A DNA stretch of 64,000 nt from Escherichia coli (GCF_050920415.1 NZ_CP169309.1), one strand, 5' to 3'; positions 5,663 through 27,312 are shown, counted from the stretch's first letter. Notes: generated from the sequence alone by a model not told the origin. Made by a program: numbers and translations.

Positions 5663-6376
5663 ATGAAGATTTTTTTGGAGAATCTTTATCATTCTGATTG
5701 CTATTTCCTGCCGATAAGAGATAACCAGCAAAACCTTGTCGGCGTTGAGTTAATTACCCATTTCTCCAGTGAAGATGGTACGGTTCGTATACCGACGAGT
5801 CGGGTTATAGCGCAACTTACCGAGGAGCAACATTGGCAATTATTTTCTGAGCAGTTGGAATTGCTAAAATCATGCCAACACTTTTTTATTCAACATAAAC
5901 TCTTTGCCTGGCTTAATTTAACCCCACAAGTGGCTACTTTATTATTAGACAGGGATAATTACGCGGGCGAACTATTAAAATATCCGTTTATTGAACTGTT
6001 GATTAATGAGAATTACCCGCATCTCGATGAAGGAAAAGATAATCGCGATCTTTTGTCCTTATCGCAAATGTATCCCCTTGTGTTAGGTAATTTGGGCGCA
6101 GGCAATAGCACAATGAAAGCGGTTTTTGATGGTCTTTTCACCCGCGTCATGCTGGATAAAAGTTTTATTCAGCAACAAATCACGCATCGCTCCTTCGAAC
6201 CGTTTATTCGTGCGATCCAGGCGCAAATTTCCCCATGTTGCAATTGCATCATCGCGGGGGGCATTGATACGCCAGAAATAATGGCACAGATTACCCCCTT
6301 TGATTTCCATGCTCTCCAGGGATGCCTGTGGCCTGCCGTTCCTGTAAATCAGATAACGACGTTGGTTCAGCGATAA
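5663..6376 (+). CDS. ydiV: Degenerate EAL-domain protein, anti-FlhD4C2 factor
   Basis: 237 aa, N-terminus MKIFLENLYHSDCYFLPIRDNQQ matches YdiV; the EAL motif position reads ELI. Confidence 0.9.
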   Translation: MKIFLENLYHSDCYFLPIRDNQQNLVGVELITHFSSEDGTVRIPTSRVIAQLTEEQHWQLFSEQLELLKSCQHFFIQHKLFAWLNLTPQVATLLLDRDNYAGELLKYPFIELLINENYPHLDEGKDNRDLLSLSQMYPLVLGNLGAGNSTMKAVFDGLFTRVMLDKSFIQQQITHRSFEPFIRAIQAQISPCCNCIIAGGIDTPEIMAQITPFDFHALQGCLWPAVPVNQITTLVQR

Positions 6377-6399
6377 CCCTCCTGTTTGCTGGTGTTTAA

Positions 6400-7875
<1,476 letters not shown>

Positions 7876-8201: not shown

Positions 8202-9248
8202 TCAGAAGCGGGTATCAACCGCAGAGGCGAGTTTTTCGACCAGGCGTTCGGTATCTTCCCAGCCCAGACACGGGTCGGTAATCGATTGACCGTAAGTGAG
8301 CGGCTGACCGCCGACGATTTTTTGCGTTCCTTCGCGCAGGAAACTTTCCGCCATAATTCCAGCAATCGCCGTAGAGCCATTGCGGATTTGCTGACAAATA
8401 TCCTCACAAACTTCTAACTGGCGACGATGCTGCTTCTGGCAGTTGCCGTGGCTGAAATCCACCACCAGATGTTCAGGTAAATCAAACTCGTGCAACGTAT
8501 CGCAGGCAGCGGCGATATCATCCGCATGGTAATTCGGCTTTTTGCCGCCACGCATAATAATGTGGCCATACGGATTGCCGCTGGTCTGATAGATGGTCAT
8601 CTGACCATTTTTGTCTGGCGAGAGGAACATATGGCTGGCGCGGGCTGCGCGGATAGCATCCACGGCAATCCGCGTGTTGCCATCGGTACCATTTTTGAAA
8701 CCTACCGGACAGGAGAGTGCCGAAGCCATTTCACGGTGGATCTGACTTTCGGTAGTACGTGCGCCAATCGCGCCCCAACTGATTAAATCAGCAATAAACT
8801 GACCGGTCACCATATCGAGAAACTCAGTCGCGGTAGGGACGCCCAGCTCATTGACCTGTAAAAGTAATTTGCGCGCCAGCTCCAGACCGTGATTTACCCG
8901 ATAGCTGCCGTTTAAATCCGGGTCGGAGATTAGCCCTTTCCAGCCGACTACAGTTCGTGGTTTTTCAAAATAGGTGCGCATTACGATTTCCAGCCGTGAC
9001 TGGTACTGATTGCGCAGTGACTGCAGGCGGGTGGCGTACTCCATTGCAGCGGTGAGATCGTGGATCGAGCAGGGGCCAATAATGACCAACAGTCGCTTGT
9101 CTTCACCATTCAGTATTTTTTCAATTCTGCGACGGGAGTCGGTGACATGGGTGGCGACGCCAGGCGTTACGGGATACCGTAGCGCGAGTTCGGCGGGCGT
9201 TACCAGGCTCTCAATACGCGCAGTACGGAGTTCGTCAGTTCTGTTCAT
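8202..9248 (-). CDS. aroH: Tryptophan-sensitive DAHP synthase
   Basis: 348 aa, N-terminus MNRTDELRTARIESLVTP matches AroH; TrpR-type operator upstream. Confidence 0.95.
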   Translation of the reverse strand: MNRTDELRTARIESLVTPAELALRYPVTPGVATHVTDSRRRIEKILNGEDKRLLVIIGPCSIHDLTAAMEYATRLQSLRNQYQSRLEIVMRTYFEKPRTVVGWKGLISDPDLNGSYRVNHGLELARKLLLQVNELGVPTATEFLDMVTGQFIADLISWGAIGARTTESQIHREMASALSCPVGFKNGTDGNTRIAVDAIRAARASHMFLSPDKNGQMTIYQTSGNPYGHIIMRGGKKPNYHADDIAAACDTLHEFDLPEHLVVDFSHGNCQKQHRRQLEVCEDICQQIRNGSTAIAGIMAESFLREGTQKIVGGQPLTYGQSITDPCLGWEDTERLVEKLASAVDTRF

Positions 9249-13004: not shown

Positions 13005-14705
13005 TTATTCAACCTCTTCACAGACATCCTGAATTAATCGCCGCATAATATCTTTCCTTAACAAAAACTTTTGTATTTTACCTGATGCAGTACGTGGTAA
13101 TTTCTCTGTTACCACAATATGTTCAGGATATTTATATTTTGCTACCCGTTTACGGCTAAAAAAAGCCACTATGTCTTCCAGCGATATTGAATGATGCGGC
13201 GCTTTCAGCACGACATAAGCGCATGAACGTTCACCTAAACGTTCATCGGGCATCGCAACCACACAGGCATCATGAATTTTAGGATGCTGTAATAAAATAT
13301 CTTCCACTTCACGACTGCTAATATTTTCCCCGCCGCGGACAATAATATCTTTCTTGCGCCCGGTTATTTTTATATAGCCAGCTTCATCCATTCGGCAGAG
13401 ATCGCCGCTGTAATACCAGCCTTCTTCATCCAGCGCACGGGCGGTTAATTCCGGTTCATCAAAATAACCCATAAACACATTGGGACCACGCGAAGCCTCT
13501 TCACCTACACAACCAGGCGGTAAGGTCTTGCGTGCATCATCGACCACTTTAATCTCTACGCCTGCGGCAGCGTAACCATCGGTGTTCATAAAGCGCGACA
13601 AAGGATCGTCGAGATTTACCACCGCATGCGGCGAACTTTCTGTGGAACCATAAACACTTAATAATTTAATGCCGCGTTGTTGGCATTCACGCGCCACCTT
13701 TTTGGGGATCGTGGTGCCGCCGCAAAGAAAGAAGCGTAGTGCAGAAAGGTCTGCGGGCTGTTTCTCCAGTAAATTCAAAAGGTCATAGACAAACGGTGTT
13801 GCGCCGAGCATGCAGGTACACCGTTGCTGCTCAAGTAGCAAAAGACAGGCTTCCGGGGTAAAGATATCTAACAACACGCTGCGAGCGCCAATTAAAAATG
13901 GTGCCGTTACGCCATGCAGAAAGCCCGTTGCGTGACCGAGTGGTGCAGGCATCATAAAGACATCCTGCCAGGTCAGGTTCAGCCGCGCGCAATATGCCCG
14001 CTCACTGGCGAGAATATTGTTATGCGTTAGCATCACGCCCTTTGGCTGCCCCTCAGTTCCGGAGGTAAATAGCACTGCTGCTAATTCATCGCCGTGGGTC
14101 GTTATCGCCGTAGTCAGTGGGGTATTGTCGGCGAGAATCTGACTTAATGAGAGGGACGAGGTGGCGGGAGCCAGTTTGTCCACGCCGACAATTTGTTGTA
14201 GTTGTGGAAGCTGATTTTGCAGCGGCAGGATTAAATCTACCGGACGCGTTTGTTTAAACAACGTCGGTGCAAAGAACATTTTTGCCTGACACTTATTGAG
14301 CACCCACACCAGTTCTGCTTCCCGCCAGGAAGGTAACAGCGGCACGGAAACCGCACCGGTTTTCAGGCAGGCAAGATAGATAACGGTAAATTCACACCAG
14401 CCTGGCAGTTGAAATGCGATGCGATCCCCTGATTCAATACCCTTCGCCAGCATCCAGTTTGCCAGACAGCTCGCGGCATGATCGAGCTCGCTATAGGTGT
14501 ACGATGCACCATGATTATCGACCACGGCAATTTTATCTGGCATCGCACGAGCGGTCTGCTGCCAGTAATCGGCCAGCGAAGCATCGCCCCATAATCCTTG
14601 CTGACGATACGCCGCACGACGTTGTTCGTTAAACGTTAATGTCACTTTCATTTTGGACTCTCGAAACAGAACATCAGGCCCGAGATACGGGCCTGTGGGA
14701 TGCAT
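13005..14705 (-). CDS. fadK: Short-chain acyl-CoA synthetase (anaerobic)
   Basis: 566-aa ORF with AMP-binding motifs (TSGTEGQPKG); ATG at 14705; an alternative start at MKVTLTF 17 codons in cannot be excluded. Confidence 0.88.
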   Translation of the reverse strand: MHPTGPYLGPDVLFRESKMKVTLTFNEQRRAAYRQQGLWGDASLADYWQQTARAMPDKIAVVDNHGASYTYSELDHAASCLANWMLAKGIESGDRIAFQLPGWCEFTVIYLACLKTGAVSVPLLPSWREAELVWVLNKCQAKMFFAPTLFKQTRPVDLILPLQNQLPQLQQIVGVDKLAPATSSLSLSQILADNTPLTTAITTHGDELAAVLFTSGTEGQPKGVMLTHNNILASERAYCARLNLTWQDVFMMPAPLGHATGFLHGVTAPFLIGARSVLLDIFTPEACLLLLEQQRCTCMLGATPFVYDLLNLLEKQPADLSALRFFLCGGTTIPKKVARECQQRGIKLLSVYGSTESSPHAVVNLDDPLSRFMNTDGYAAAGVEIKVVDDARKTLPPGCVGEEASRGPNVFMGYFDEPELTARALDEEGWYYSGDLCRMDEAGYIKITGRKKDIIVRGGENISSREVEDILLQHPKIHDACVVAMPDERLGERSCAYVVLKAPHHSISLEDIVAFFSRKRVAKYKYPEHIVVTEKLPRTASGKIQKFLLRKDIMRRLIQDVCEEVE

Positions 14706-14707
14706 GA

Positions 14708-15001
14708 TTAGCCGTAGCGAAAATCAATACCGAAGGTGCCTGCGGGATATTGCCACTGTTCGAGAATCGTATTGCCACACAACACCCGACAGGTGCCGCA
14801 TTCGAGACAACCGGCGGAATCAAAATGTATGTTTCCTGCGTCATCCTGCTTATACAGTCCGGCAGGGCAAGCTTTCATTAATTTACGGAATTCATTGATA
14901 TCGGGATTTGCCGCCAGAATGATATGCGGGTGACCCTCATCAACATGGAATTTATTGACACCTAATTTGATGTCGACGTTAACCGTAGCGTTCTGGCTCA
15001 T
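14708..15001 (-). CDS. ydiT: Ferredoxin-like protein (FixX family)
   Basis: 97 aa with Cys cluster CLECGTCRVLC; start overlaps ydiS stop (ATGA). Confidence 0.9.
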   Translation of the reverse strand: MSQNATVNVDIKLGVNKFHVDEGHPHIILAANPDINEFRKLMKACPAGLYKQDDAGNIHFDSAGCLECGTCRVLCGNTILEQWQYPAGTFGIDFRYG

Positions 15002-16287
15002 AGCGCGGTTGCTCCCTTAATGCCATCTTTCAGCAAGTTGATCAGCCCAATTTTCTTCGCGTGTCCCATGATCATTTTGCGTACCGGCTGGTTTGGTTTG
15101 CCGTCGATGGTGAACATATCGTTCATGATGTCGGCGACCATTCGTGGGTATTGGCTAAACAGGCGCGGGTTTTCCATCAGCGCCGGGATCTTGCGGAAAT
15201 GCTGCATATCGCGCATAACACAACTTTGTTCCAGCTCACGTTTGTATTGCGCCAGGCTGCTGGCGGAGAAGTCAGCGCGTTCTTTAGCGGCAATCACTGT
15301 TGTGGCGGCAGCCTGGGCCGATGCGATGGCTAAATCCATTCCGCGAACCGTAAAGCCCAGATTGAGGCAGAAACCTGCGGCATCACCGACGATCATCACG
15401 CCCTCATTAACCAGCTGCGGCACCATCGCCAGACCGCCTTCCGGTACCATGTGCGCGGAATATTCAAGCAGTTTGCCGCCGCTAATCAGTGAGCGAATGG
15501 CGGGGTGTTGTTTAAAATCTTCCAGCATTTGCGGCACGCTTTTTTTTGCATGGGCGATATCACCCAATCCACAAACCAGCCCCAACGATACGGAATCCTT
15601 GTTGGTATAGAGGAATCCGCCGCCCATCAGGCCGTCAGAAGGGGAACCGGCAAACAGCCAGGCGGCACCTTCCTCGCCCATAACATTAAAGCGATCGTTG
15701 ATTTGCTCTGGTGTAAGACCAATAATCTCTTTAACACCAACTGCGTAATGATGCGGATCGGAAGCGGGAACCATTCCCAGCGAGCGGCCAAGCATTGAGT
15801 TAACGCCATCAGCCAGAATCACCACATTCGCTTCAAGAACATCATCCCCGGCCTGAACGCCAGTGACCTTATTTCCTTCACGAACCAGCGCATCGACACG
15901 AACGCCCGGGATAAACTGCGCGCCAGCCTGTTCGGCTTGTTCCATCAACCACGGGTCCAGACGATTACGCAATACGGTATAAGACGCGTGTTGCGGAACA
16001 TCTGGTTGCTCGCGGTGAAAATCGAGGGTAACGGCACTCTCTTCGGTTAAGAAGGAGATTTTCTCGCGTGTGACCTTGCGTTCTACCGGCGCTGATGCTG
16101 CAAAGCCTGGAATAATCGCTTCAAGTGTGTGGGCATAAAGACGCCCGCCGGTCATGTTTTTACATCCGGCACTGTCGCCGCGTTCTATCACCAGGACATC
16201 CAGCCCGGCTCGCGCCATGACCAGTGCGGCAACGCTACCGGCAACGCCCGCACCGACCACAATGGCATCAAATTTGTCATCCGACAT
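14998..16287 (-). CDS. ydiS: ETF-quinone oxidoreductase-like flavoprotein (FixC family)
   Basis: 429 aa, N-terminal FAD fold motif DAIVVGAGVAGS. Confidence 0.92.
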   Translation of the reverse strand: MSDDKFDAIVVGAGVAGSVAALVMARAGLDVLVIERGDSAGCKNMTGGRLYAHTLEAIIPGFAASAPVERKVTREKISFLTEESAVTLDFHREQPDVPQHASYTVLRNRLDPWLMEQAEQAGAQFIPGVRVDALVREGNKVTGVQAGDDVLEANVVILADGVNSMLGRSLGMVPASDPHHYAVGVKEIIGLTPEQINDRFNVMGEEGAAWLFAGSPSDGLMGGGFLYTNKDSVSLGLVCGLGDIAHAKKSVPQMLEDFKQHPAIRSLISGGKLLEYSAHMVPEGGLAMVPQLVNEGVMIVGDAAGFCLNLGFTVRGMDLAIASAQAAATTVIAAKERADFSASSLAQYKRELEQSCVMRDMQHFRKIPALMENPRLFSQYPRMVADIMNDMFTIDGKPNQPVRKMIMGHAKKIGLINLLKDGIKGATAL

Positions 16288-16342
16288 GCGTTATGCTCCC
16301 TTCCCGCTGCATTTACAGCGGGAGATGTGGTTGAAAGGGGAA

Positions 16343-17281
16343 TTAGCGGCTCAACTGGCTAATCAGGGCAGGGACGACTTTGTAAATATCGCCCACCAGG
16401 CCGTAGTCGGCATAATTGAAGATTGGCGCGTTTTTATCTTTATTGATGGCGACAATCACTTTTGCGCCGTTGCCGCCAACCATATGTTGGATCTGCCCGG
16501 AGATCCCCAGCGTCAGGTAGAGATCGGATTTCAGCAACACGCCGGAGACACCGATATAACGTTCACGCTCCATCCAGTTCTCGCCTTCGGCAATTGGACG
16601 TGAACAGCCGACTTCAGCATTCAGCACCGCCGCCAGTTCGTGGACCATTTTCAGGTCATCCTGCGCCGCCAGACCGCGACCGACGCCAACCACACGTTTT
16701 GCTTTGCTCAGGTCCACGCTGCTTGCCGCTTTCGCTCGGCGTTCGCGACAGAGAATTTCATGACGCGGGGCAACATAAGGTACCGTTTCTGTCGGGCACT
16801 GATGAGAGATATCACTGGTGCACGGTTCCTGAACACCGGGTGCAAGGGTAATGATCGCCAGCGGGCTGTTGATCTTTTCCTGAGCGAACGCTAACCCGCC
16901 ATACATCCGGTGTTCGGCGCAAATGTGACCATCGACAATATCCACCGCCGTGGCATCGTTCACCAGCGCCGCATTCAGTTGCACACTTAACCGTGCTGCC
17001 AGAGCTTTACCACGTTTCGTCGCGGCCAGCAGCAACATAGCGGGGTGTTTATCTTTCAGCAGGGCAGCAATGCTTTCGGCGTAATTTTCAGTACGTTGCA
17101 GCGCGTCGTTTTGCTCAAGAACATAAATACATTTTGGCCCATAAGGCATAACTGCCTGCGCCTGGTCGGTATTTTGTACAATGGCATACACCTGTTGGCC
17201 CCATTGCTGCGCGCCGCCAAACAGTTCAGCATAACGTTCAGGATTATCGCTAAAGACCCAGACGCTGTTTAATTGACTCAT
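16343..17281 (-). CDS. ydiR: Electron transfer flavoprotein alpha subunit
   Basis: 312 aa, ETF-alpha/FixB-like sequence. Confidence 0.92.
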   Translation of the reverse strand: MSQLNSVWVFSDNPERYAELFGGAQQWGQQVYAIVQNTDQAQAVMPYGPKCIYVLEQNDALQRTENYAESIAALLKDKHPAMLLLAATKRGKALAARLSVQLNAALVNDATAVDIVDGHICAEHRMYGGLAFAQEKINSPLAIITLAPGVQEPCTSDISHQCPTETVPYVAPRHEILCRERRAKAASSVDLSKAKRVVGVGRGLAAQDDLKMVHELAAVLNAEVGCSRPIAEGENWMERERYIGVSGVLLKSDLYLTLGISGQIQHMVGGNGAKVIVAINKDKNAPIFNYADYGLVGDIYKVVPALISQLSR

Positions 17282-17300
17282 CGTTTCTTCTCCGTAGGCT

Positions 17301-18065
17301 TCAGTTCAGGGCTTTCTTCAGATGTTCCGCCAGCTCGGCAATGGCCTCCGGCGAATCGTTATCGAGAATGATGTGCTTACGTTCTGTTTGCGGCGGTACG
17401 CGAATGCCGGTCAGTTCAGCAAGTGGCGTGCTCTGGCTCCAGCCAATATCACTTGCCTGCCACTGATTTACCGGTTTTTTACCCGCGCCGAGAATGGCTT
17501 TCATCGAAGGAATGCGTGGCATGTTAATATCGGAGGTGACGCAGAGCACGGCTGGAACAGAGAGCTCAATAACTTCAACATCATCTTCAAGCGTGCGTTC
17601 AATCACCAGTGTATTGCCCTGACGCTGAATAGCACTCACTGCATTAATCACCGGAAGTTGCAGAATTTCTCCGACCAGCAAGCCAACCTGCTGGGCATAA
17701 AGGTCGCCGGAACCTTCACCAAAGATCAGTAAATCGAAGCCGATCTTTTCAACTGCTGCCGCCAGCGCCTTTGCGGTATCGAGAGGCAGTGCATGTTCAA
17801 GTTGCGCATCCTGCACCAAATACAGGCTATGCGGCCCGCGGGATAGCACGTCTTTGCGCACTTTCGAGTTCTGCAACAATGAGCCGCCAATGGTCAGCGC
17901 GGCTATCTCATCGTCATCTGTTGCAATCTGGCTTGCAGCTTCAATGGCATTGAGATCGAACTGGCTGATTTTGGCGTCGGCATTGTCGAAATTCAGGGTA
18001 TATTCTGGAGTGACAACAATGTCCTGTTCTTCAGGCACCAGCTTAAAGCAGGTTATTATTTTCAT
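17301..18065 (-). CDS. ydiQ: Electron transfer flavoprotein beta subunit
   Basis: 254 aa from ATG at 18065 (MKIITCFKLVPEE) with RBS caggag upstream; the ORF-track 33-codon 5' extension is rejected. Confidence 0.88.
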   Translation of the reverse strand: MKIITCFKLVPEEQDIVVTPEYTLNFDNADAKISQFDLNAIEAASQIATDDDEIAALTIGGSLLQNSKVRKDVLSRGPHSLYLVQDAQLEHALPLDTAKALAAAVEKIGFDLLIFGEGSGDLYAQQVGLLVGEILQLPVINAVSAIQRQGNTLVIERTLEDDVEVIELSVPAVLCVTSDINMPRIPSMKAILGAGKKPVNQWQASDIGWSQSTPLAELTGIRVPPQTERKHIILDNDSPEAIAELAEHLKKALN

Positions 18066-18180
18066 GATTTCTCCTGTGAGTCGCATACGGAACCATCTCC
18101 GATGGAAGGTAAAAATGGCCTGAAAATAGTGTGCGATAGCGGTGCGGGGTTTTCGACGGAGCAAGCTGTTTTCCTTGCCA

Positions 18181-18264
18181 ACAATCTTGCAAAAAAAATG
18201 CGATCGCTAAAACAAAAGTGCAATTTGCGGCAATGTTGTTATTCCATGACCGTACAATCTTGCA
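18181..18264 (+). promoter_or_regulatory. Divergent ydiQ/ydiP promoter region with direct 11-mer repeat ACAATCTTGCA (copies at 18181-18191 and 18254-18264)
   Basis: Identical 11-mer twice, 73 bp apart, in a 216-bp intergenic region. Confidence 0.4.
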
Positions 18265-18380
18265 TTCAGTGTAAATAATCTTGTTTAGCTCTCGCTAAAC
18301 GCGGTTGTATAACCGCAATACACGCCGTATTTTATCCGGCATATATTGTTTTTGCTTGCTCATGGAATAGGGAGGTTGTC

Positions 18381-19292
18381 ATGTATCAACGCTGTTTTGA
18401 TAACGCCAGCGAAACGCTGTTTGTCGCCGGTAAAACGCCACGGCTTTCACGTTTTGCATTTAGCGATGATCCAAAATGGGAGTCCGGACATCACGTTCAT
18501 GACAATGAAACCGAGTTGATTTACGTCAAGAAAGGGGTAGCAAGGTTTACCATCGATTCTTCGTTATATGTCGCGCATGCCGATGACATTGTGGTGATAG
18601 AACGTGGCAGGTTGCATGCGGTGGCCTCTGACGTTAACGATCCAGCAACGACGTGTACCTGTGCGCTGTACGGCTTTCAGTTTCAGGGGACTGAGGAAAA
18701 TCAGCTACTGCAACCGCATTCTTGCCCGGTCATTGCCGCAGGGCAGGGAAAAGAAGTCATTAAAACCTTATTTAATGAGCTAAGTGTGATTTTGCCGCAA
18801 AGTAAAAATAGCCAAACATCTTCGTTATGGGACGCATTTGCCTATACGTTAGTAATTCTTTACTACGAAAACTTTAAAAATGCTTATCGTTCGGAGCAGG
18901 GATATATTAAAAAAGATGTTCTGATAAAAGATATTCTTTTCTATCTGAATAATAATTATCGCGAAAAAATCACTTTAGAGCAGTTATCGAAAAAATTTCG
19001 TGCCAGCGTCAGTTATATCTGCCATGAATTTACCAAAGAGTATCGTATTTCCCCTATTAACTATGTTATTCAACGGCGTATGACGGAAGCGAAATGGTCA
19101 CTCACTAATACTGAATTATCACAGGCAGAGATCTCCTGGCGTGTGGGTTATGAAAATGTCGATCACTTTGCCAAACTGTTTTTGCGCCATGTCGGCTGTT
19201 CGCCCAGCGATTACCGCAGGCAATTTAAAAACTGTTTTGCGGAACAAGAAATCTTATCTGAATTTCCTCAACCGGTAAGTCTTGCCGGATAA
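18381..19292 (+). CDS. ydiP: AraC/XylS family transcriptional regulator
   Basis: 303 aa, cupin-like N-terminus and C-terminal AraC-type HTH region. Confidence 0.9.
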   Translation: MYQRCFDNASETLFVAGKTPRLSRFAFSDDPKWESGHHVHDNETELIYVKKGVARFTIDSSLYVAHADDIVVIERGRLHAVASDVNDPATTCTCALYGFQFQGTEENQLLQPHSCPVIAAGQGKEVIKTLFNELSVILPQSKNSQTSSLWDAFAYTLVILYYENFKNAYRSEQGYIKKDVLIKDILFYLNNNYREKITLEQLSKKFRASVSYICHEFTKEYRISPINYVIQRRMTEAKWSLTNTELSQAEISWRVGYENVDHFAKLFLRHVGCSPSDYRRQFKNCFAEQEILSEFPQPVSLAG

Positions 19293-19334: not shown

Positions 19335-20486
19335 TTATTTGTTCTGATAATCTTTCAGGATCTGCCGACCCGCTACGTAAATCATAATTTCGTCTGTACC
19401 GCCGCCGATACGTTCACAACGGACATCACGCCAGAAGCGAGAGACGCGCGCCTCATCGGTATAGCCCAGACCGCCCATGATTTGAATCGCATCATCAATG
19501 ACTTCCATTGCGGTACGTGCGCAGTACAGTTTTGCCAGCGCCGCGCTGGTGCGCAGTGACTGATGCTGATCGGCTTGCCATGCCACTTTCAACACCATGT
19601 TGCGCATGTTGTCGATCTTAATCGCCATCAGCGCCAGTTTTTCCTGAATCATCTGGTTATGACCAATGGGCTTACCAAAAGCGATACGTTGGTTGGCATA
19701 GCGGGCGGCATCTTCGAATGCGCATTCGGCAAAGCCGGTGCTGCGCGCGGCGTTGATCAGGCGCTCCATCTCAAAGTTGTACATCACATTGAGGAAACCC
19801 ATTCCTTCTTCGCCCACCATGTCGCTCTCTTCAACTTCCACGTTGTTGAGATAGACTTCGCAGGTGCTGAGCATATGCCAGCCGATTTTATGCAGCGGGT
19901 TAATCTTAATGCCGGGCTTACTGGAGTCGACCCACCACAGGGTGAAGGCTTTTTTGGGATCTTTCGGTTCTGGATCGCGCGCCAGCACCAGCATATACGG
20001 GTACTCTTTCGCGCCGGTAATAAAGGTTTTCTGGCCGTTGATGTAAACCTTGCCATTTTTACGCGTGTAAGTGGTAGTAGCACTGTTATTGTCTGAGCCT
20101 GCGCCTGGTTCCGTCAACGCCAGGGCATAGGCGGGATCACCCGTTTCCAGGGTGCTCTCTGCCGTTTTACGTAGCTGCTCAGCAGAACCGAAACGGCGCA
20201 TGCTGTGAATACATTGACCGTTGGTAATCAAAAATGCCGGAGCACCGCATTTTGACACTTCCATCAGCGCCAGCATTTGGGTGACGTAATCCGCAGGGAT
20301 ACCACCAAATTCTTCCGGCACGCCAAGCATTGAAATACCGTTATCCGCCAGTGCCCGCATAAACTCACGCGGGTATGTCCCGTTTTGATCGCAGGTGCGG
20401 AAATACTCTTCCGGAAAGTTGGTCGTAATCAACTCGCGAATACTGGCCAGCAGCAGTTCTTGTTCTTCAGTTAAAGAAAAATCCAT
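19335..20486 (-). CDS. ydiO: Acyl-CoA dehydrogenase (CaiA/butyryl-CoA dehydrogenase-like)
   Basis: 383 aa from ATG 20486 (MDFSLTEEQELL); acyl-CoA dehydrogenase-family sequence. Confidence 0.9.
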   Translation of the reverse strand: MDFSLTEEQELLLASIRELITTNFPEEYFRTCDQNGTYPREFMRALADNGISMLGVPEEFGGIPADYVTQMLALMEVSKCGAPAFLITNGQCIHSMRRFGSAEQLRKTAESTLETGDPAYALALTEPGAGSDNNSATTTYTRKNGKVYINGQKTFITGAKEYPYMLVLARDPEPKDPKKAFTLWWVDSSKPGIKINPLHKIGWHMLSTCEVYLNNVEVEESDMVGEEGMGFLNVMYNFEMERLINAARSTGFAECAFEDAARYANQRIAFGKPIGHNQMIQEKLALMAIKIDNMRNMVLKVAWQADQHQSLRTSAALAKLYCARTAMEVIDDAIQIMGGLGYTDEARVSRFWRDVRCERIGGGTDEIMIYVAGRQILKDYQNK

Positions 20487-20499
20487 CATTATACTCCTG

Positions 20500-22095
20500 T
20501 TAATGAGCCGCTTCAGGCAGGACAAAACCCATCGCCGCATCGATAAATAATCTTTCGTCCATCAGTTTGAGTTCTGGCGAAATCACTGGGGTGAAATCCA
20601 TTTTGTCGAGAATATCTTTTTGTAAATCGACGCCAGGAGCGATTTCGATTAAATGCAGGCCGTCTTCTTTTAGCGTGAATACGGCGCGCTCAGTGATATA
20701 ACGAACATCCAGTCCTCGCTCGAGAGCGATTTTTCCGCTGAAAGTAATTTCCGGTAGTTCCTGAATAAATTTCTTCACCCGTCCTTCCTGGACGATATTT
20801 AATTTGCCGTCGGCAATTTCTGTTTTTAAACTGCCCGCAGTTAATGTGCCGCAGAAAATGATTTTCTTCGAAGTGGCACTGATATCAATAAATCCACCGG
20901 TGCCCATGATTTTACCATTGAATTTATGCACGCCGACGTTACCGTGCTGGTCGACTTCAGCAAAACTCAAATAACAAACATCCAGACCGCCACCGTGATA
21001 AAAATCAAACTGGGACGTCATATCCAGAATGGCACGGGTATTCACGTTCGCGCCAAAGGCGATCCCCTGTGAAGTAATACCGCCAATTGGGCCTGTTTCT
21101 ACCGTCAGAATAAAGTCATCAGCACAACCTTCTTCCCGGGCGACCAGGCCAATGCCGTCAGCAATACCGACGCCGACATTCCCCACCGCGCCTTTGCGCA
21201 TTTCGAATAATGCGCGCCGTGCAACTAATTTACGTTGGTTTAGGGGTAGGCTAAGTTTGGTGCTGTCATCAAGGGTGAAGTCACCAGAAATAAAGCGGTT
21301 AACCGGCGCACCGCCATACAGTTGGGTTTGATCCGGATCGACTACCACAATATCCACCAGATAACCCGGAATACGGACAGATTTAGGATGCAGCGTGGCT
21401 TTCTTAACCATCTTCTGCACCTGCATCATCACAATACCGCCGTTATTGTGCACCGCCTGAGCAATAACCAATGCGTCGAGATACATCACCTCATCTTCAA
21501 AGGTGGCGTAGCCTTCGCTGTCGCAGGTGGTGGCGCGAATAAAGGCGATATCCGGCGCAATCGCTTTGTAATAGAGATATTCTTTGTTATCAAACTCGAC
21601 CAGTTTAATCAGGTCTTCTTTAGTGACTTCATTCAGTTTGCCGCCTTGCTGGCGTGGATCGACAAATGTTCCGATGCCAATATCACTAATAATACCAGGC
21701 TGGTGGGCTGCGGCGGCGCGTAAGGTTTGTGTAAGTACACCTTGTGGATAGTTATAAGCAATAATTTTATTTTGTTCTGCGAGATCAGAAATACGCGGCG
21801 ATTGTCCCCAGTGACCGCATAATGCCCATTTCACCAGACCTTCTTGTGCCAGCGGACTAATACCACGGTCGGCGCGATCGCCAAGCCCTGTTGGACTAAT
21901 AATCGATAAATTACGTGGTGTTTGAGTCTGTTTATATTTATCAGCAAGAGCAGTAATTAACGTGGTGGCTTCCAGAATACCGCCGCCAGCGCCTAACACA
22001 CAAAGTGTTGCTTCGTCGGGAATATAATTCACCGCTTCCTGTGCCGACAGGACCGGCACTCGTCCATTAATACGAGGTGGTTTTACAGGTTTCAT
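20500..22095 (-). CDS. ydiF: Fused alpha/beta acetate/3-ketoacid CoA-transferase
   Basis: 531 aa, N-terminus MKPVKPPRINGRVPVLSAQEAV matches YdiF. Confidence 0.92.
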   Translation of the reverse strand: MKPVKPPRINGRVPVLSAQEAVNYIPDEATLCVLGAGGGILEATTLITALADKYKQTQTPRNLSIISPTGLGDRADRGISPLAQEGLVKWALCGHWGQSPRISDLAEQNKIIAYNYPQGVLTQTLRAAAAHQPGIISDIGIGTFVDPRQQGGKLNEVTKEDLIKLVEFDNKEYLYYKAIAPDIAFIRATTCDSEGYATFEDEVMYLDALVIAQAVHNNGGIVMMQVQKMVKKATLHPKSVRIPGYLVDIVVVDPDQTQLYGGAPVNRFISGDFTLDDSTKLSLPLNQRKLVARRALFEMRKGAVGNVGVGIADGIGLVAREEGCADDFILTVETGPIGGITSQGIAFGANVNTRAILDMTSQFDFYHGGGLDVCYLSFAEVDQHGNVGVHKFNGKIMGTGGFIDISATSKKIIFCGTLTAGSLKTEIADGKLNIVQEGRVKKFIQELPEITFSGKIALERGLDVRYITERAVFTLKEDGLHLIEIAPGVDLQKDILDKMDFTPVISPELKLMDERLFIDAAMGFVLPEAAH

Positions 22096-22239
22096 TGTTA
22101 ATTCCTGATTCAGGTGTAATTTTCCCTACGCCAGATGGAGAATTAGAGCGCAGAGACTCACGAAATATTTTTATTAAATACGGTTGAATATATTTTTTTA
22201 GTTCGGCGGGGGAGGGTATTCCCGCCGAAATATTATTGC

Positions 22240-22998
22240 TTATGCCTGATGTAAAATAGTTAATACCGTGCGCAAATCATTTACCGAGATTTGCCCTGGC
22301 GCAGAGGCTTTTTTTACCGCACCAAAAGTTGCCGCCGACCCAAATACTTCACCAGCCAGACGAGAAATTACGCCAGTTTTTGCCATCGACATCGTGATGA
22401 TTGGACGATCGGCATACTGCTCCTGCATCTCCAGGGTCGCGGCAAGCAACGTCAGCACATCGCTGGTACTTTGCGGCATCAGCGCAATCTTAGGAATATC
22501 GGCGTCGAAGGACTGCATTTTACGCAGACGGGCAATGATTTCTTCGGCTTCCGGCGTTTTATGGAAGTCATGGTTGGACATGACAACTTTCACATCATGC
22601 GCGTGGGCGTAGGCGACGGTTTCTTTAACTTGATCATCACCGGTAAATAACTCCAGATCGATCATATCAACCAGGCCGCTGTCGATGGCTGCACGATTGA
22701 GTGCAATATAAGCCTCGGTGGAAATCGCCTGCTCGCCGCCTTCTTTGGCACTGCGGAAGGTAAACAGCAGCGGTTTTTCTGGCATGGTTTCACGGAGAAT
22801 TTTTGCCGCTGCCATGACAGACTCCACATTGGATAGGTCGGCATAGTGGTCAACACGCCATTCCAGAATATCAAAGTCCGCTTCACGATAGGCGAGAGCT
22901 TCGGATTTCACGCTGGCGATATCTTTCGCCATCAGCGAGACGATGATTTTAGGTGCGCCCGTACCAATGACGAGATCTTTTACAGTTACGGTTTTCAT
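22240..22998 (-). CDS. aroD: 3-dehydroquinate dehydratase type I
   Basis: 252 aa, N-terminus [26 protein letters not shown] matches AroD. Confidence 0.95.
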
Positions 22999-23028
22999 TT
23001 TTTACCCTTTCTGCACGCGGTCAGCCTG

Positions 23029-23895
23029 TCAGGCACCGAACCCCATGACCTGTTTAACATATTCCAGAGGGAAATCTTTGCCAGTCCATAACGTGAACTG
23101 TTCAGCCCCTTGCCACAACAACATGCCGTATCCATCAATCGTTTTGCAACCAGCTTGTTGCGCCTGCTGCAATAACTTCGTCATATGCGGGTTATACACG
23201 CATTCAGTGACCAGAAGTCCCGGATGTAACAGACTGATATCATTAACCAATGATTCATTCTCAAGGGGTTTCATGCCCACTTTTGTGCCATTGGTTAAAA
23301 TGTCGGCGGAAGCCAGGGCTTCAGCAAAGGCTTGCTGATCGGCGAGATCGGTAACCGTGACGACACAATCGGTGTTTTCGTTAACCCGCTGCGCGAAGGC
23401 GAGGGCTTTATCGAAGAACTCATCCCGACGGTTAAAGAGTTTAATTTCTTTTAAACCTTCAATTGCCCCCTGCGCGCCAATTGCCGTTGAGGCACCTCCG
23501 GCCCCTAACAGCACCATCGTTTTGCCTTTGATATCAAAACCGCTCTCTTTAATGGCGCGAATATGGCCCGTGCCGTCGGTGTTATAGCCACGCAGATAGC
23601 CATCATCATTTACGATGGTGTTGATGGCACCCACCAGTTTGGCTGCTGGCGTTAATTCATCAACATATTCACACGCCAGTTGTTTGTTCGGCATTGATAC
23701 ACCAGTTCCGCGCATTTTGAGGGCTTTTAATCCTTCAATTGCTCCGGGAAAACTATCGTTATCCACTTCAAAGGCCATATAGGTAAATGGCAATCCCGCT
23801 TTTTCTAAGGCTTTGTTCTGCATTTCGGGCGATAAACTGTGGCGGATGGGATAGGCCATCAACCCAATCAATTCGTATTTTGCGGTAACATCCAT
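23029..23895 (-). CDS. ydiB: Quinate/shikimate dehydrogenase (NAD(P)-dependent, AroE paralogue)
   Basis: 288 aa, N-terminus [23 protein letters not shown] matches YdiB. Confidence 0.95.
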
Positions 23896-23906
23896 AATTA
23901 ACTCCT

Positions 23907-25172
23907 TTAACCTCTATGCTTAATTGTGTTTAACCGGGTGCTAAATTTATGCTCGCCAAACCGCACATCATTTTCAGGAATAATGAAAACGCGGTAATAG
24001 CGGATAAAAACAATAATTGCGGTAATCAGGGCCAGCAGCGCGAAAGTAAAATCGAGAACAATGATATATTGCAGGCCGATGTTCGACAGATAACCGGTAA
24101 TCAGCGGAATAACAAAGTTAGCCAGTCCACCCATCATCATATATATACTGGTGACTTTGGCTTTGCTTTTGGGGAAAAACTCTGACATGACCGAAACGCC
24201 GAGCTGTAAAATGCCGCCAGCTGCTGAGAAACCGATAACAAAGGCTCCGGCATTACACACCAGTGGAGAAGGGTACAGGTAGATAATGGCAGCTGTTATT
24301 GTTGCCAGTGCAGAGTTAAATACATTAGCCCAGATGGGCCGGACCATTTTTTTCAGCAGTGCGGCAAAAATAAAGACACAGACCAGCGAACCCATACTGT
24401 AATAAGAGATGGTTTTTAATGCCTCAGCTTCTGACATACCAGCAAAAGCCATCGCATATTTGGGCATCCACACCACAATCACATAAAAGGTCGAGAATGC
24501 GGCTACACCGAACAGTACCGATGAAACACCTTCCAGCCAGACTAACGGTTTGCTGTTCATTTGCGGTAATTCATTAGCTACGCTGGCGTCCACCAACTGG
24601 CTGGGGAATTTGCTTTTCAACAGCATCAGCGTGATCAGTACAAACAGAATACCCGGAATAATCAGCCCATAGCCGTACCAGATATTATTGAGCAACATAT
24701 AGCTCACCAGCATTGGGTAGAACATTTGCCCGAATGACACCATCGCTTTAACCAGTATGACTGCCGAACCAGAGGCTTTCGGAAAGCATTCCATGAGCGC
24801 AGGGTAGCCACCCGTATCCAGCGCTGAGTTAGCGATACCTACGCACACTGCCAGACAGTAGGCGAGAGTTAAATTCGGGCAAGCGGGAATACCAAAGAAG
24901 AATAGCAGATACATTATTACTGCCATTAATATCACCGCCCGACGACCAAACTTATCGGAGATCACACCGAAGAATAAAATACTGATCAATCGCCCCAAAC
25001 CGATACCGGAAATTAAATAGGCAATGCCCGCGTTGTCAGTGGAAAACTTTTCTGCCAGAGATGACATATTTTGGGCAAGCGTAATAACACTAATGCCGTG
25101 CAGAAAATAGCTGAAGTAAATACAAAGAACAGCCAGGATAAATGGCGTGCTGAAAGCCTTATTTTGAGACAT
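23907..25172 (-). CDS. ydiN: MFS transporter
   Basis: 421 aa from ATG at 25172 (MSQNKAF); the ORF-track start at 25178 is GTG; multi-pass hydrophobic protein. Confidence 0.88.
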
Positions 25173-25398
25173 TTTCACAGCTCCTTGCTGAAAGATTATT
25201 TCGTTACCGTACGTATTGTTCTCCGACGGTTTACATAATTACTATACTGAAGATGATTTTCCCTGGGTACATGGCATAAAGTTTATGTTTCCAGGAATAT
25301 TGCATGTCATAGTTTGTTTTTGATCGCGATTTTCCTTAGTTAGCGCAGAAAGAGTTATTTATCCGTAAGATCTTGCATGACCTGAAAAGAATATTGCA

Positions 25399-26613
25399 TT
25401 ACCCACCCGGAGCGACATTTTCCTTTAGCGAGTTATGCTGCGTTTCTTTGCGGCTGCGTAAGCCGATAAACAGTGCCAGTAAAAAACCGATGGCAGCGAT
25501 GGCGGTATCGAACCACATAATATCGGCAATACTTCTTTGGGACAGATGAGCCGTAATCAACGGAATAGTAAAGGTCGCAATACTGCCCGCACTGTAATAG
25601 ATCCCTGTAGCTTTACCTTTAGCGTAGGGGAAACGTTCAGCCATTAACGTCAGGCCAATTTGCACAACACCTCCAGCAGAGGTAAAACCAATGACAAAAG
25701 CAAATATTATCACCACATAAAATGTGGGATGCAGGCAGACGGTAAACAGAGCAATAAATGAGATAAAGGTGTACAGCATCAGTAATGTTGTTGGGCGAAC
25801 GATATTACGAATGAGTGGAGCGGTAATAAATACACAAAGCAGCGAACCCACGGTGTAGATACTGAGTAGTTTGATCGACATAGTGTATGACATGCCTGCA
25901 ACAAATTGTCCGTACTGTGCCAGCCACTGGCTAACCAGATAAAAGGTTGCCATTGAGATATAGCCATATAAGGTATAACTGGCTAAATCGATAATTGAAC
26001 AGCGATGTTCCGTAGAGTTGGTGGCTTTCTCTATGACAGGTAAGCGACGACCCGGATGGGGTGGGAACGTACAACGGTATAAAAACAGAGCATTAATAAA
26101 CATAATGCCTGCGGCAATCATAAAGGACCAGCCGAACCACAGTTCAGCCCACACTAACAGGCTGATGATTAGCGGTAATAAAAATTGCCCGCTGGAAACA
26201 AATGCTTTAATTAAAATATTAGCTGTACCCGGTGAACGTGGAAAAGCTTCCATCAAACTGGGATAGGTGCCTGCATCGAGAAAACTGTTTGCCATTCCCG
26301 CCAGAAAGCCCAAACCATAAGCGATAATGATGTTATTGGTGTGCAGGATGCCAAAAAAGAAGGCCATATAGCAGCACATCCCGAGCATGATAAAAGGGCG
26401 GCGACCAAAGCGATCGGATAATAATCCTGCAAAAAGCAAGACACTTAATCGACCAATACCCAGCGATGAGATAACTATTGAGACGCCTGCGGCATTAGTC
26501 TGCCAAAGCGTCTCCAGCGAGGCCATATTCAGGCTCATCAAAATGACGCCCATACCATGCACCAGGTAATTAAAATACAACCCAAGTGCGGTAGGGAAAT
26601 AGGGATTTTTCAT
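25399..26613 (-). CDS. ydiM: MFS transporter
   Basis: 404 aa, ATG at 26613, about 12 hydrophobic segments. Confidence 0.88.
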   Translation of the reverse strand: MKNPYFPTALGLYFNYLVHGMGVILMSLNMASLETLWQTNAAGVSIVISSLGIGRLSVLLFAGLLSDRFGRRPFIMLGMCCYMAFFFGILHTNNIIIAYGLGFLAGMANSFLDAGTYPSLMEAFPRSPGTANILIKAFVSSGQFLLPLIISLLVWAELWFGWSFMIAAGIMFINALFLYRCTFPPHPGRRLPVIEKATNSTEHRCSIIDLASYTLYGYISMATFYLVSQWLAQYGQFVAGMSYTMSIKLLSIYTVGSLLCVFITAPLIRNIVRPTTLLMLYTFISFIALFTVCLHPTFYVVIIFAFVIGFTSAGGVVQIGLTLMAERFPYAKGKATGIYYSAGSIATFTIPLITAHLSQRSIADIMWFDTAIAAIGFLLALFIGLRSRKETQHNSLKENVAPGG

Positions 26614-26711: not shown

Positions 26712-27068
26712 TTAACAAAGGCGCTCCAGATCGTGTGCATATAATTCAGCGGCTACCGATTGATAGATCTTCCAGTCAATAAAATTGCCATCAGGGTAGA
26801 CACGTTGAAACGCGGTTAAGTCAGGGAAAAAACGCATGGTGTTGTTGCCGATGCGGTTATTTATTTTCTCTATGATGGCATGAAGATGTTTTTTTCGTTG
26901 CTGTCGCATAGCCAACAGTTGCTCGACCACACGATCAGGAATGGCGCATTTGCCATTTTCCCACTGACGCCAGCTTTCACTGTCACCGGTCTGGGCAATC
27001 CAGGTCGCGCATTCATCAATAGTCATGGCAAAAATATGGCGAAGTGCCTGGAGTTCATAAGCGTTCAT
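26712..27068 (-). CDS. ydiL: DUF1870-type small protein YdiL
   Basis: 118 aa from in-frame ATG (MNAYELQALRHIF); the ORF-track start at 27095 is TTG. Confidence 0.75.
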   Translation of the reverse strand: MNAYELQALRHIFAMTIDECATWIAQTGDSESWRQWENGKCAIPDRVVEQLLAMRQQRKKHLHAIIEKINNRIGNNTMRFFPDLTAFQRVYPDGNFIDWKIYQSVAAELYAHDLERLC

Positions 27069-27206
27069 CGTGTAATGGCTGCATGAAATAAACAATAAAA
27101 TATAAATAACATTATCAGCCTGCCGACGGCTTGAAGAGAGTCACAGTATCTTGTGCAACATTATTGGAAAGAGTGAGGGGGCGAGGTAGCGAAGCGGAAA
27201 AATGTT

Positions 27207-27312
27207 AAAAAAAAGCCCATCGTGGGAGATGGGCAAAGACTACACACAGCAATTCGTTGTTTCACTCAGGGGATTTCCATGCTTATAAATCAATATGTTG
27301 ATTTATAACCGT
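27207..27312 (-). ncRNA. rprA: RprA small regulatory RNA (Hfq-dependent activator of rpoS translation)
   Basis: Reverse complement reads ACGGTTATAAATCAACATATTGATTTATAAGCATGGAAATCCCCTGAGTGAAACAACGAATTGCTGTGTGTAGTCTTTGCCCATCTCCCACGATGGGCTTTTTTTT, recognised as RprA with its intrinsic terminator. Confidence 0.88.

Follow-up and report, generated by a model that had tools for sequence, protein, structure and literature searches.

The ydiN-ydiB-aroD genes of Escherichia coli as a probable uptake and interconversion unit for hydroaromatic acids, with TGCAAKAT boxes shared with a neighbouring CoA-dependent redox cluster

Bacterial clusters for the utilisation of quinate and shikimate include qsuABCD of Corynebacterium glutamicum, qui-pca of Acinetobacter and Pseudomonas, and qui1/qui2 of Listeria. 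Their common plan is a set of genes with its own regulator that encodes a transporter, a dehydroquinase and an NAD-dependent quinate/shikimate dehydrogenase of the YdiB type; a preprint on the Listeria qui genes leaves the transporters there without identification (10.1101/2025.04.08.647683). Here we examine a 64-kb stretch of Escherichia coli DNA (64,000 nucleotides, hereafter the window) in which aroD, ydiB and two transporter genes of the major facilitator superfamily (MFS), ydiN and ydiM, occupy positions 22240-26613. We report that this locus follows the same plan and that ydiN-ydiB-aroD probably forms an inducible unit for the uptake and interconversion of the plant hydroaromatic acids quinate, shikimate and 3-dehydroshikimate, with ydiM as a second, paralogous carrier under separate control.

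The locus differs from the qsu/qui clusters in that the window holds no QuiC/QsuB, and in that its dehydroquinase is of type I and doubles as the biosynthetic enzyme. A tblastn search of the 64-kb window with the QuiC-type protein of Telmatospirillum (E <= 1e-3) returned no dehydroshikimate dehydratase, and the window contains no type II dehydroquinase, no second dehydroquinase gene and no extra shikimate kinase, so that this is not a classical catabolic cluster of the qui or qsu type. With no dehydroshikimate dehydratase near the locus, the product would not be routed to protocatechuate; as E. coli is also, to our knowledge, without a protocatechuate pathway, the acids cannot be burnt via this route.

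All four genes lie on the minus strand and are transcribed in the order ydiM, ydiN, ydiB, aroD, according to both the open reading frames (ORFs) and the RefSeq annotation. ydiM (25399-26613) is separated by a 226-bp intergenic regulatory region (25173-25398) from ydiN (23907-25172; a mechanical ORF list opens this gene six bases earlier, at a GTG), which is followed after 11 bp by ydiB (23029-23895) and then, after a further 30 bp, by aroD (22240-22998). An original prediction, made from the sequence alone, had given these four names and their outer coordinates exactly and had rightly put the genes on one strand; its order of aroD and then ydiB is true in plus-strand coordinates only, aroD being the last gene transcribed. 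The segment 21000-28000 matches NZ_CP169399.1 at 100% identity, and at least 80% of it is carried by 5318 of 5426 complete E. coli genomes.

AroD is a type I 3-dehydroquinate dehydratase (TIGR01093, 292.2 bits against a cut-off of 139.3; PF01487, 260 bits). To speak of a dehydrogenase pair, as had been done, is loose, aroD encoding a dehydratase. YdiB, the NAD(P)-dependent quinate/shikimate dehydrogenase, passes the YdiB equivalog model NF009390 (669.9 bits, cut-off 349), with the AroE models falling below their own cut-offs, and it is the crystallised enzyme, PDB entries 1NPD and 1O9B being matched over all 288 residues (E 3.7e-194). These matches bear out its identity; its dual activity is taken from the literature. 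YdiN and its paralogue YdiM, identified through ORFs, annotation, domain search, family models and homologue contexts, are 37% identical to each other, and the general family MFS_1 (PF07690) is the only one that either matches above cut-off (113.7 and 121.9 bits, respectively; cut-off 33.4). They had been described as transporters of unassigned substrate, and so they are: RefSeq names the K-12 proteins "putative transporter YdiN" and "putative exporter YdiM", and TCDB, which places the two among the aromatic acid:H+ symporters (2.A.1.15) as 2.A.1.15.12 and 2.A.1.15.13, lists no cargo for YdiN and only putative isoprenol export for YdiM (PMC10588857).

The proposed role of YdiN as a quinate/shikimate/dehydroshikimate carrier is based largely on the company that its homologues keep. 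YdiN, YdiM and 18 homologues were aligned, one genome per species was scanned with the alignment, and neighbours of each transporter were found by tblastn with the E. coli proteins. Among the matches listed, nine loci contained true YdiM/YdiN homologues (Escherichia albertii, two Citrobacter, Brenneria, Secundilactobacillus, a Streptococcus metagenome-assembled genome, L. delbrueckii, Enterococcus and an Orbaceae genome), and 11 loci with weak MFS matches, some of them short-flanked, served as controls; ydiB and/or aroD stood beside the transporter in nine of the nine and in none of the 11 (Fisher p = 6e-6). The adjacency of aroD/ydiB and a transporter is more than chance and recurs across phyla, with the trio of MFS, shikimate dehydrogenase (SDH) and dehydroquinase (DHQase) genes conserved from Enterobacterales to lactic acid bacteria. 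The order is ydiB-MFS-aroD in Secundilactobacillus, the Streptococcus genome and Enterococcus, while the L. delbrueckii contig starts at the transporter gene and shows MFS-aroD only. Firmicute transporters sandwiched between ydiB and aroD are nearer to YdiM (42-50% identity) than to YdiN.

Other members of these clusters are informative about the chemistry. In Telmatospirillum, a YdiN homologue (52% identity) sits in exactly a qui/qsu-type cluster, with SDH, type II DHQase and TetR genes on one side and, on the other, this MFS gene itself, a chemoreceptor gene and, about 2.7 kb further on and on the opposite strand, a QuiC-type dehydroshikimate dehydratase (808 bits). This classical catabolic context implies import. 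The Carnobacterium module consists of LysR, a BaiCD/FadH-type ene-reductase, SDH, MFS, DHQase and a second MFS gene, and an ene-reductase of this type also lies beside the module in Enterococcus and in the Orbaceae genome. Inside the Brenneria and Orbaceae clusters there is an aroL-type shikimate kinase gene near ydiL (directly after it in Brenneria, about 0.4 kb downstream in Orbaceae), which fits salvage. Relative to E. coli, two genes are extra in the Brenneria roseae locus (L004), at 5909-6469 and 8344-9246: this kinase gene, which separates ydiL from ydiM, and a gene for a LysR-family regulator, which lies in the ydiM-ydiN interval on the opposite strand.

The 11-bp and 30-bp gaps, together with the absence of any convincing terminator from ydiN to aroD in a sequence scan, favour a ydiN-ydiB-aroD unit. 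Upstream of it, the sense strand of the ydiM-ydiN region carries TGCAAKAT boxes at 25398-25390, 25377-25370 and 25304-25281 (TGCAATATTCCTGGAAACATAAAC), and a -10-like TATAGT at 25246-25241 with a weak -35. An alignment of Escherichia, Citrobacter and Salmonella-like loci shows as invariant ATGCAATATT, abutting the ydiM stop codon, a second TGCAAnAT 21 bp on, and the proximal box TGCAATAnnCCTGGnAA...AAAC; a GTATAnTAAT element 3' of the proximal box is conserved, and the -35 is poor. In this gap a consensus promoter scan gave nothing on the sense strand, and inspection by eye showed no CRP site (TGTGA-N6-TCACA) that would convince. The region looks like an activator-dependent promoter for ydiN, and since a promoter-like gap with conserved boxes follows ydiM, this gene is probably a separate transcription unit.

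The idea that YdiN and YdiM carry hydroaromatic acids is already in print, dating from 2006 and extended in 2023. Strong induction of ydiB, aroD and ydiN was seen in a shikimate-accumulating strain under carbon limitation, and Johansson and Liden (2006, cited in PMC4585142 and PMC8788726) proposed that YdiN carries shikimate or its by-products. With ydiN deleted, the shikimate titre rose 1.3-fold, an increase attributed to lost re-uptake (PMC8788726), and about 75% of YdiM/YdiN homologues were found to adjoin a shikimate-pathway gene, mostly ydiB, aroD or aroK (PMC10588857).

In the mechanism that we favour, YdiN, and probably YdiM, would import hydroaromatic acids as MFS carriers. YdiB, by an activity that others have reported, would oxidise quinate to 3-dehydroquinate, AroD would dehydrate this to 3-dehydroshikimate, and YdiB or AroE would reduce the latter to shikimate, the last two steps being known reactions. 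The product would enter the common aromatic pathway as salvage and may also feed the adjacent CoA-dependent redox system of ydiF-ydiO and ydiQRST-fadK, with which the unit shares a conserved operator; aroD would keep its housekeeping biosynthetic role as well. The uptake-plus-conversion module of the original prediction is partly supported: it is consistent with all of the context evidence, namely the conserved trio, the Telmatospirillum cluster and the Brenneria/Orbaceae kinase, but ydiM stands apart from it, separated by the 226-bp regulated region and with other phenotypes. The contrast drawn there with pure biosynthesis is limited by AroD, which serves biosynthesis too and so keeps the module tied to it.

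Several points weigh against this view of the locus. Scored with the aromatic acid/H+ symporter model TIGR00895, YdiN and YdiM reach 43.2 and 35.7 bits, far short of its cut-off of 418.55, BLASTP against the shikimate carrier ShiA gave short motif matches only (E 0.003 and 0.04) and no full-length similarity, and structure-sequence comparison found no related solved structure; judged by their sequences, they would at best be distant members of 2.A.1.15. The original YdiN proposal took in export of by-products, so that the direction of transport is disputed (PMC4585142). ydiM is required for full activity of the bo3 quinol oxidase, a role as copper carrier has been proposed for its product, and conserved YdiM Met residues have been interpreted as a possible copper site (PMC10588857); a ydiM mutant is also isoprenol-sensitive, by which YdiM has been tied to isoprenol tolerance (PMC4643228). 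In the searched literature we found no transport or binding assay for YdiN or YdiM. aroD encodes the biosynthetic dehydroquinase, needed for aromatic biosynthesis, and its position could partly reflect history. Wild-type E. coli is not known to meet the requirements of aro mutants with quinate, and on that footing the system would be silent or inefficient in the laboratory.

The functional unit seems to reach past 22240-26613, to ydiL upstream and to ydiF-ydiO, ydiP and ydiQRST-fadK downstream. On the same strand 3' of aroD lie ydiF (20500-22095), encoding a fused alpha/beta family I CoA-transferase (PF01144; PDB 2AHU), and ydiO (19335-20486), encoding a CaiA-like acyl-CoA dehydrogenase (ACAD) or enoyl-CoA reductase (NF008997, 785 bits; the next model, crotonobetainyl-CoA dehydrogenase or CaiA, scores 450 bits, under its cut-off of 540). 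Beyond them, annotation and domain search place the AraC-family regulator gene ydiP (18381-19292, plus strand), divergent from ydiQ across an intergenic regulatory region (18066-18380, read here on the minus strand), and then, annotated on the minus strand at 13005-18065, ydiQ-ydiR (electron-transfer flavoprotein, ETF), ydiS-ydiT (FixC/FixX-like) and fadK (acyl-CoA ligase). K-12 has the same layout. A hairpin search found a G+C-rich hairpin with a perfect 9-bp stem just 3' of the aroD stop (22202-22229), with no T-run after it on the sense strand; E. coli and a Salmonella-like locus have it, and Citrobacter lacks it. As this is not a canonical terminator, transcription may possibly continue past it into ydiF-ydiO. 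The hairpin could act as a weak terminator or attenuator, or it could stabilise the RNA.

These neighbours give rise to the best-surviving alternative, a larger regulon of ydiN-ydiB-aroD-ydiF-ydiO and ydiQRST-fadK, regulated by ydiP and/or ydiL and with the four genes as its upstream part, in which hydroaromatic acids would be processed as CoA thioesters. We put this forward as a tentative proposal that we doubt more than we believe. One argument for it is a TGCAAKAT operator common to ydiN and ydiQ. The ydiP-ydiQ region contains two TGCAAGAT boxes, at 18264-18256 and 18191-18168, the proximal one (TGCAAGATTGTTGGCAAGGAAAAC) closely similar to the proximal ydiN box; each proximal box is on the sense strand, its start 58-63 bases 5' of a -10-like element. 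TGCAAKATT occurs eight times in the window against 1.8 expected, a count that none of 100 shuffles reached, and four of the eight matches lie in the ydiM-ydiN and ydiP-ydiQ intergenic regions, which together measure 541 bp. Of the remaining four, one is at the btuE start, one at the ydhY/ydhV junction and two are in cfa; all of these are in or at the edge of coding sequence and were treated as chance; a TGCAAAAT match within ydiB is coding sequence (Met-Gln-Asn) and was discarded as a site. Enrichment is confined to the core of 8-9 bases: the full 11-mer ATGCAATATTC, with two mismatches allowed, shows no enrichment, the window giving 19 matches where 27 are expected.

The ydiN and ydiQ boxes are invariant from Escherichia through Brenneria. 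The pair with 21-bp spacing recurs in Brenneria and in the divergent ydiQ/ydiN region of Sutterella-type loci, and TGCAAGATnnTAyG boxes are found in the AraC-divergent regions of two loci from uncultured lineages, L030 and L038. Direct repeats at 21-bp spacing are typical of AraC/XylS-type activators, which makes YdiP the obvious candidate regulator; that it binds the TGCAAKAT boxes is our guess. YdiP has been the subject of a single study, which connects it with cold shock (PMC9283627). A target of FNR in chromatin immunoprecipitation has been reported as "ydiP/ydiQ" (PMC1802558); the FNR-type site TTGACGTAAATCAA maps to 18516-18529, within the ydiP coding sequence and about 450 bp upstream of the ydiQ start. 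From the boxes and the gene neighbourhoods we infer co-regulation of ydiN-ydiB-aroD with ydiF-ydiO and ydiQRST-fadK.

A further argument is that homologues of the two gene sets are interleaved elsewhere. At least five gene orders, from lineages whose G+C content spans 38-60%, mix YdiB-type SDH and type I DHQase genes with those for CoA-transferase, ACAD, ETF, FixCX and ligase. In L030 (41.7% G+C) an MFS gene and a divergent AraC gene are followed by MFS-CoA-transferase-ACAD-ETFbeta-ETFalpha-SDH-DHQase-FixC-FixX, with gaps of 11-28 bp except for 140 bp between SDH and DHQase and a 4-bp overlap of FixC and FixX. Sutterella wadsworthensis (57% G+C) has ligase-FixX-FixC-ETFalpha-ETFbeta divergent from MFS-SDH-DHQase-CoA-transferase-ACAD, its proteins being 63% (YdiN) and about 82% (YdiF) identical to those of E. 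coli, and two more orders of SDH and DHQase among ydiF, ydiO, ydiQRST and fadK homologues occur in the uncultured lineages L038 and L039. The SDHs of the interleaved loci pass the YdiB model NF009390 (521-551 bits), and the ACADs pass the YdiO model (722 bits in L030, 690 in Sutterella). AraC-family genes stand at the equivalent position in L030, L038, L039 and L116. As far as the searched literature shows, neither the shared operator nor the interleaved gene orders have been described.

Looked at from the CoA-transferase, the association loosens with distance. Scanning metagenomes with a YdiF alignment yielded 80 loci. Where YdiF identity was 79% or more and the flank was sufficient, every locus had ydiB and aroD (Enterobacterales and Sutterella-type lineages). 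At 61-65% identity a dehydroquinase of type I or II is kept in three of five informative loci, and in one of these (L115) the order is AroD-YdiB-MFS-YdiF. The other two, L114 (9950-16166) and L120 (2704-7808), form a second cluster type, in which a YdiF-like CoA-transferase (62-64% identity) is joined by a type II dehydroquinase, an ApbA-type reductase and an IclR regulator, to which L120 adds a MaoC dehydratase and L114 an MFS carrier; their type II dehydroquinase is a non-orthologous replacement, and their composition suggests a CoA-dependent hydroaromatic pathway in other bacteria. The retention of a dehydroquinase near such distant YdiF homologues is consistent with the regulon, but two loci of the same class (L117 and L119) are without any dehydroquinase. 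A broader notion, that all YdiO-like enzymes are tied to hydroaromatic acids, was dropped: distant homologues (62-68% identity, Desulfovibrio and others) lack SDH and DHQase and sit with CaiB-type transferase, ETF and FixCX genes, a point against the regulon as well, as ETF/FixCX clusters without SDH or DHQase indicate that the redox module is generic.

The chemistry of such a regulon can only be speculated upon. Most likely, YdiB and AroD would turn quinate into shikimate, YdiF or FadK would activate shikimate, an alpha,beta-unsaturated acid, and the CaiA-like YdiO would reduce the ring double bond with electrons supplied via YdiQR and YdiST. This "shikimate respiration" would run parallel, by analogy, to the carnitine (cai/fix) and caffeate (car) systems, with dehydration, CoA activation and enoyl-CoA reduction. 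The Firmicute and Orbaceae modules, which carry the BaiCD/FadH-type ene-reductase instead, could be a parallel, CoA-independent solution. Such chemistry would fit an old finding, the conversion of shikimate to cyclohexanecarboxylate by gut flora by a route not known (Brewster 1978, cited in PMC7558350). Stated in full, the possibility is that Enterobacterales, Sutterella and uncultured low-G+C lineages among the gut Proteobacteria have one conserved regulon with TGCAAKAT direct repeats, probably YdiP-controlled, through which quinate and shikimate from the diet are used in the form of CoA thioesters, most likely by reducing the ring double bond of shikimoyl-CoA via YdiO with ETF and FixCX-type electron input; we regard it as worth entertaining rather than as probable. 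Against it, YdiF reportedly acts on short acyl-CoAs and FadK on medium-chain acids. [quoted passage not shown]

Alternatively, YdiN, possibly together with YdiM, might be an exporter acting as a safety valve for quinate, dehydroshikimate and shikimate, with YdiB and AroD running in reverse. Such a role would suit the proposal of Johansson and Liden, which followed the joint induction under carbon limitation (PMC4585142), the K-12 exporter name of YdiM, and the isoprenol sensitivity of the ydiM mutant (PMC10588857, PMC4643228). We consider it unlikely, however, because deletion of ydiN raised rather than lowered extracellular shikimate (PMC8788726), and because homologues lie in catabolic or reductive clusters, beside a chemoreceptor and a dehydroshikimate dehydratase, that call for import. 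That adjacency is meaningless in E. coli, with aroD purely biosynthetic, ydiB a redundant AroE paralogue and the MFS proteins unrelated (YdiM, for instance, supplying copper to the bo3 oxidase), would agree with the requirement for aroD in aromatic biosynthesis, with the lowered oxidase activity and Met residues of YdiM (PMC10588857) and with the lack of support for hydroaromatic-acid transport in the searched literature, but is very improbable given an MFS-SDH-DHQase adjacency kept across phyla and absent from the control MFS loci among the matches listed, the co-induction of ydiN, ydiB and aroD (PMC4585142) and a conserved regulated promoter upstream of ydiN.

Some further features surround the uptake and interconversion unit. 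At the head of the cluster, ydiL (26712-27068, minus strand) encodes a small helix-turn-helix protein of the Aca2/YdiL family (PF08965, 205 bits), whose nearest solved structures are 1S4K (YdiL itself) and several anti-CRISPR-associated Aca2 repressors. E. albertii, Citrobacter, Brenneria and one Orbaceae genome likewise retain ydiL next to the MFS genes, and its product may be a local regulator of the cluster. Between ydiK and ydiL lies the small RNA gene rprA (27205-27312, minus strand), the terminator of which (27234-27215) shields the ydi cluster from upstream transcription. On the other side, beyond fadK, the segment 8202-12948 contains aroH (Trp-sensitive DAHP synthase, 8202-9248), ppsR and ppsA (PEP synthase), so that the ydi island is flanked, perhaps by coincidence, by the gene of the first shikimate-pathway enzyme and that of a PEP-supplying enzyme. 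One metagenome contig encodes a 668-residue protein (P0007) that joins an MFS domain to both shikimate-dehydrogenase domains; its matched part is 100% identical to YdiN, and it is probably a ydiN-ydiB read-through over the 11-bp gap (23896-23906), by mutation or assembly artefact. E. albertii has a second YdiO-like acyl-CoA dehydrogenase (P0149, 68% identity to E. coli YdiO), which suggests a paralogous cluster elsewhere in its genome.

In itself, the grouping of these four genes restates an annotated K-12 locus and a hypothesis in print, its main value being to recall that the substrates of YdiM and YdiN are still to be measured. The operator and the gene orders go further: the gene orders link ydiB and aroD with some ten ydi genes of poorly defined function, and both leads open the transporter substrates and the roles of the neighbouring y-genes to direct test. 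Should all these genes work jointly on quinate and shikimate, a sizeable block of the E. coli "y-ome" would acquire a role, the fatty-acid-only view of ydiFO and ydiQRST would have to be revised, and there would be genes to account for the long-standing finding that dietary shikimate and quinate are reduced by gut microbes. If the tentative CoA-thioester regulon is real, it would also be a candidate for the long-unknown microbial route from these acids to reduced ring acids such as cyclohexanecarboxylate.

Beyond the bacterial qsu and qui clusters, the proposed unit can be set beside three other known systems. ShiA, the shikimate:H+ symporter, is likewise an MFS carrier of E. coli and moves shikimate and dehydroshikimate; shiA and ydiN have been used together in the engineering of shikimate strains (PMC8788726). 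Unlike ydiN, shiA is unlinked to pathway genes, and the similarity of its product to YdiN and YdiM is confined to a generic MFS loop motif. The fungal qut and qa systems (QutD of Aspergillus, qa-y of Neurospora) also unite a quinate permease, a dehydrogenase and a catabolic dehydroquinase in one regulated cluster (PMC12610400), but they are eukaryotic, their permeases are of the sugar-porter type, their dehydroquinase is of type II, and a dehydroshikimate dehydratase is included.

For the extended cluster only, the closest likeness is to caiTABCDE with fixABCX and to carABCDE of Acetobacterium, which share with it a transporter, a CoA-transferase or ligase, a CaiA-type reductase, ETF and FixCX-type proteins. 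In cai/fix and car an unsaturated acid serves as electron acceptor following dehydration. The ydi genes would differ in that the proposed dehydration, from quinate to shikimate, takes place on the free acids by means of YdiB and AroD, and they do differ in that YdiF is a family I rather than a family III transferase. YdiO itself misses the CaiA model, yet CaiA is its best characterised relative, and the whole cai/fix-like component set of CoA-transferase and ligase, CaiA-type flavoenzyme, ETF and FixCX-type proteins is present by homology.

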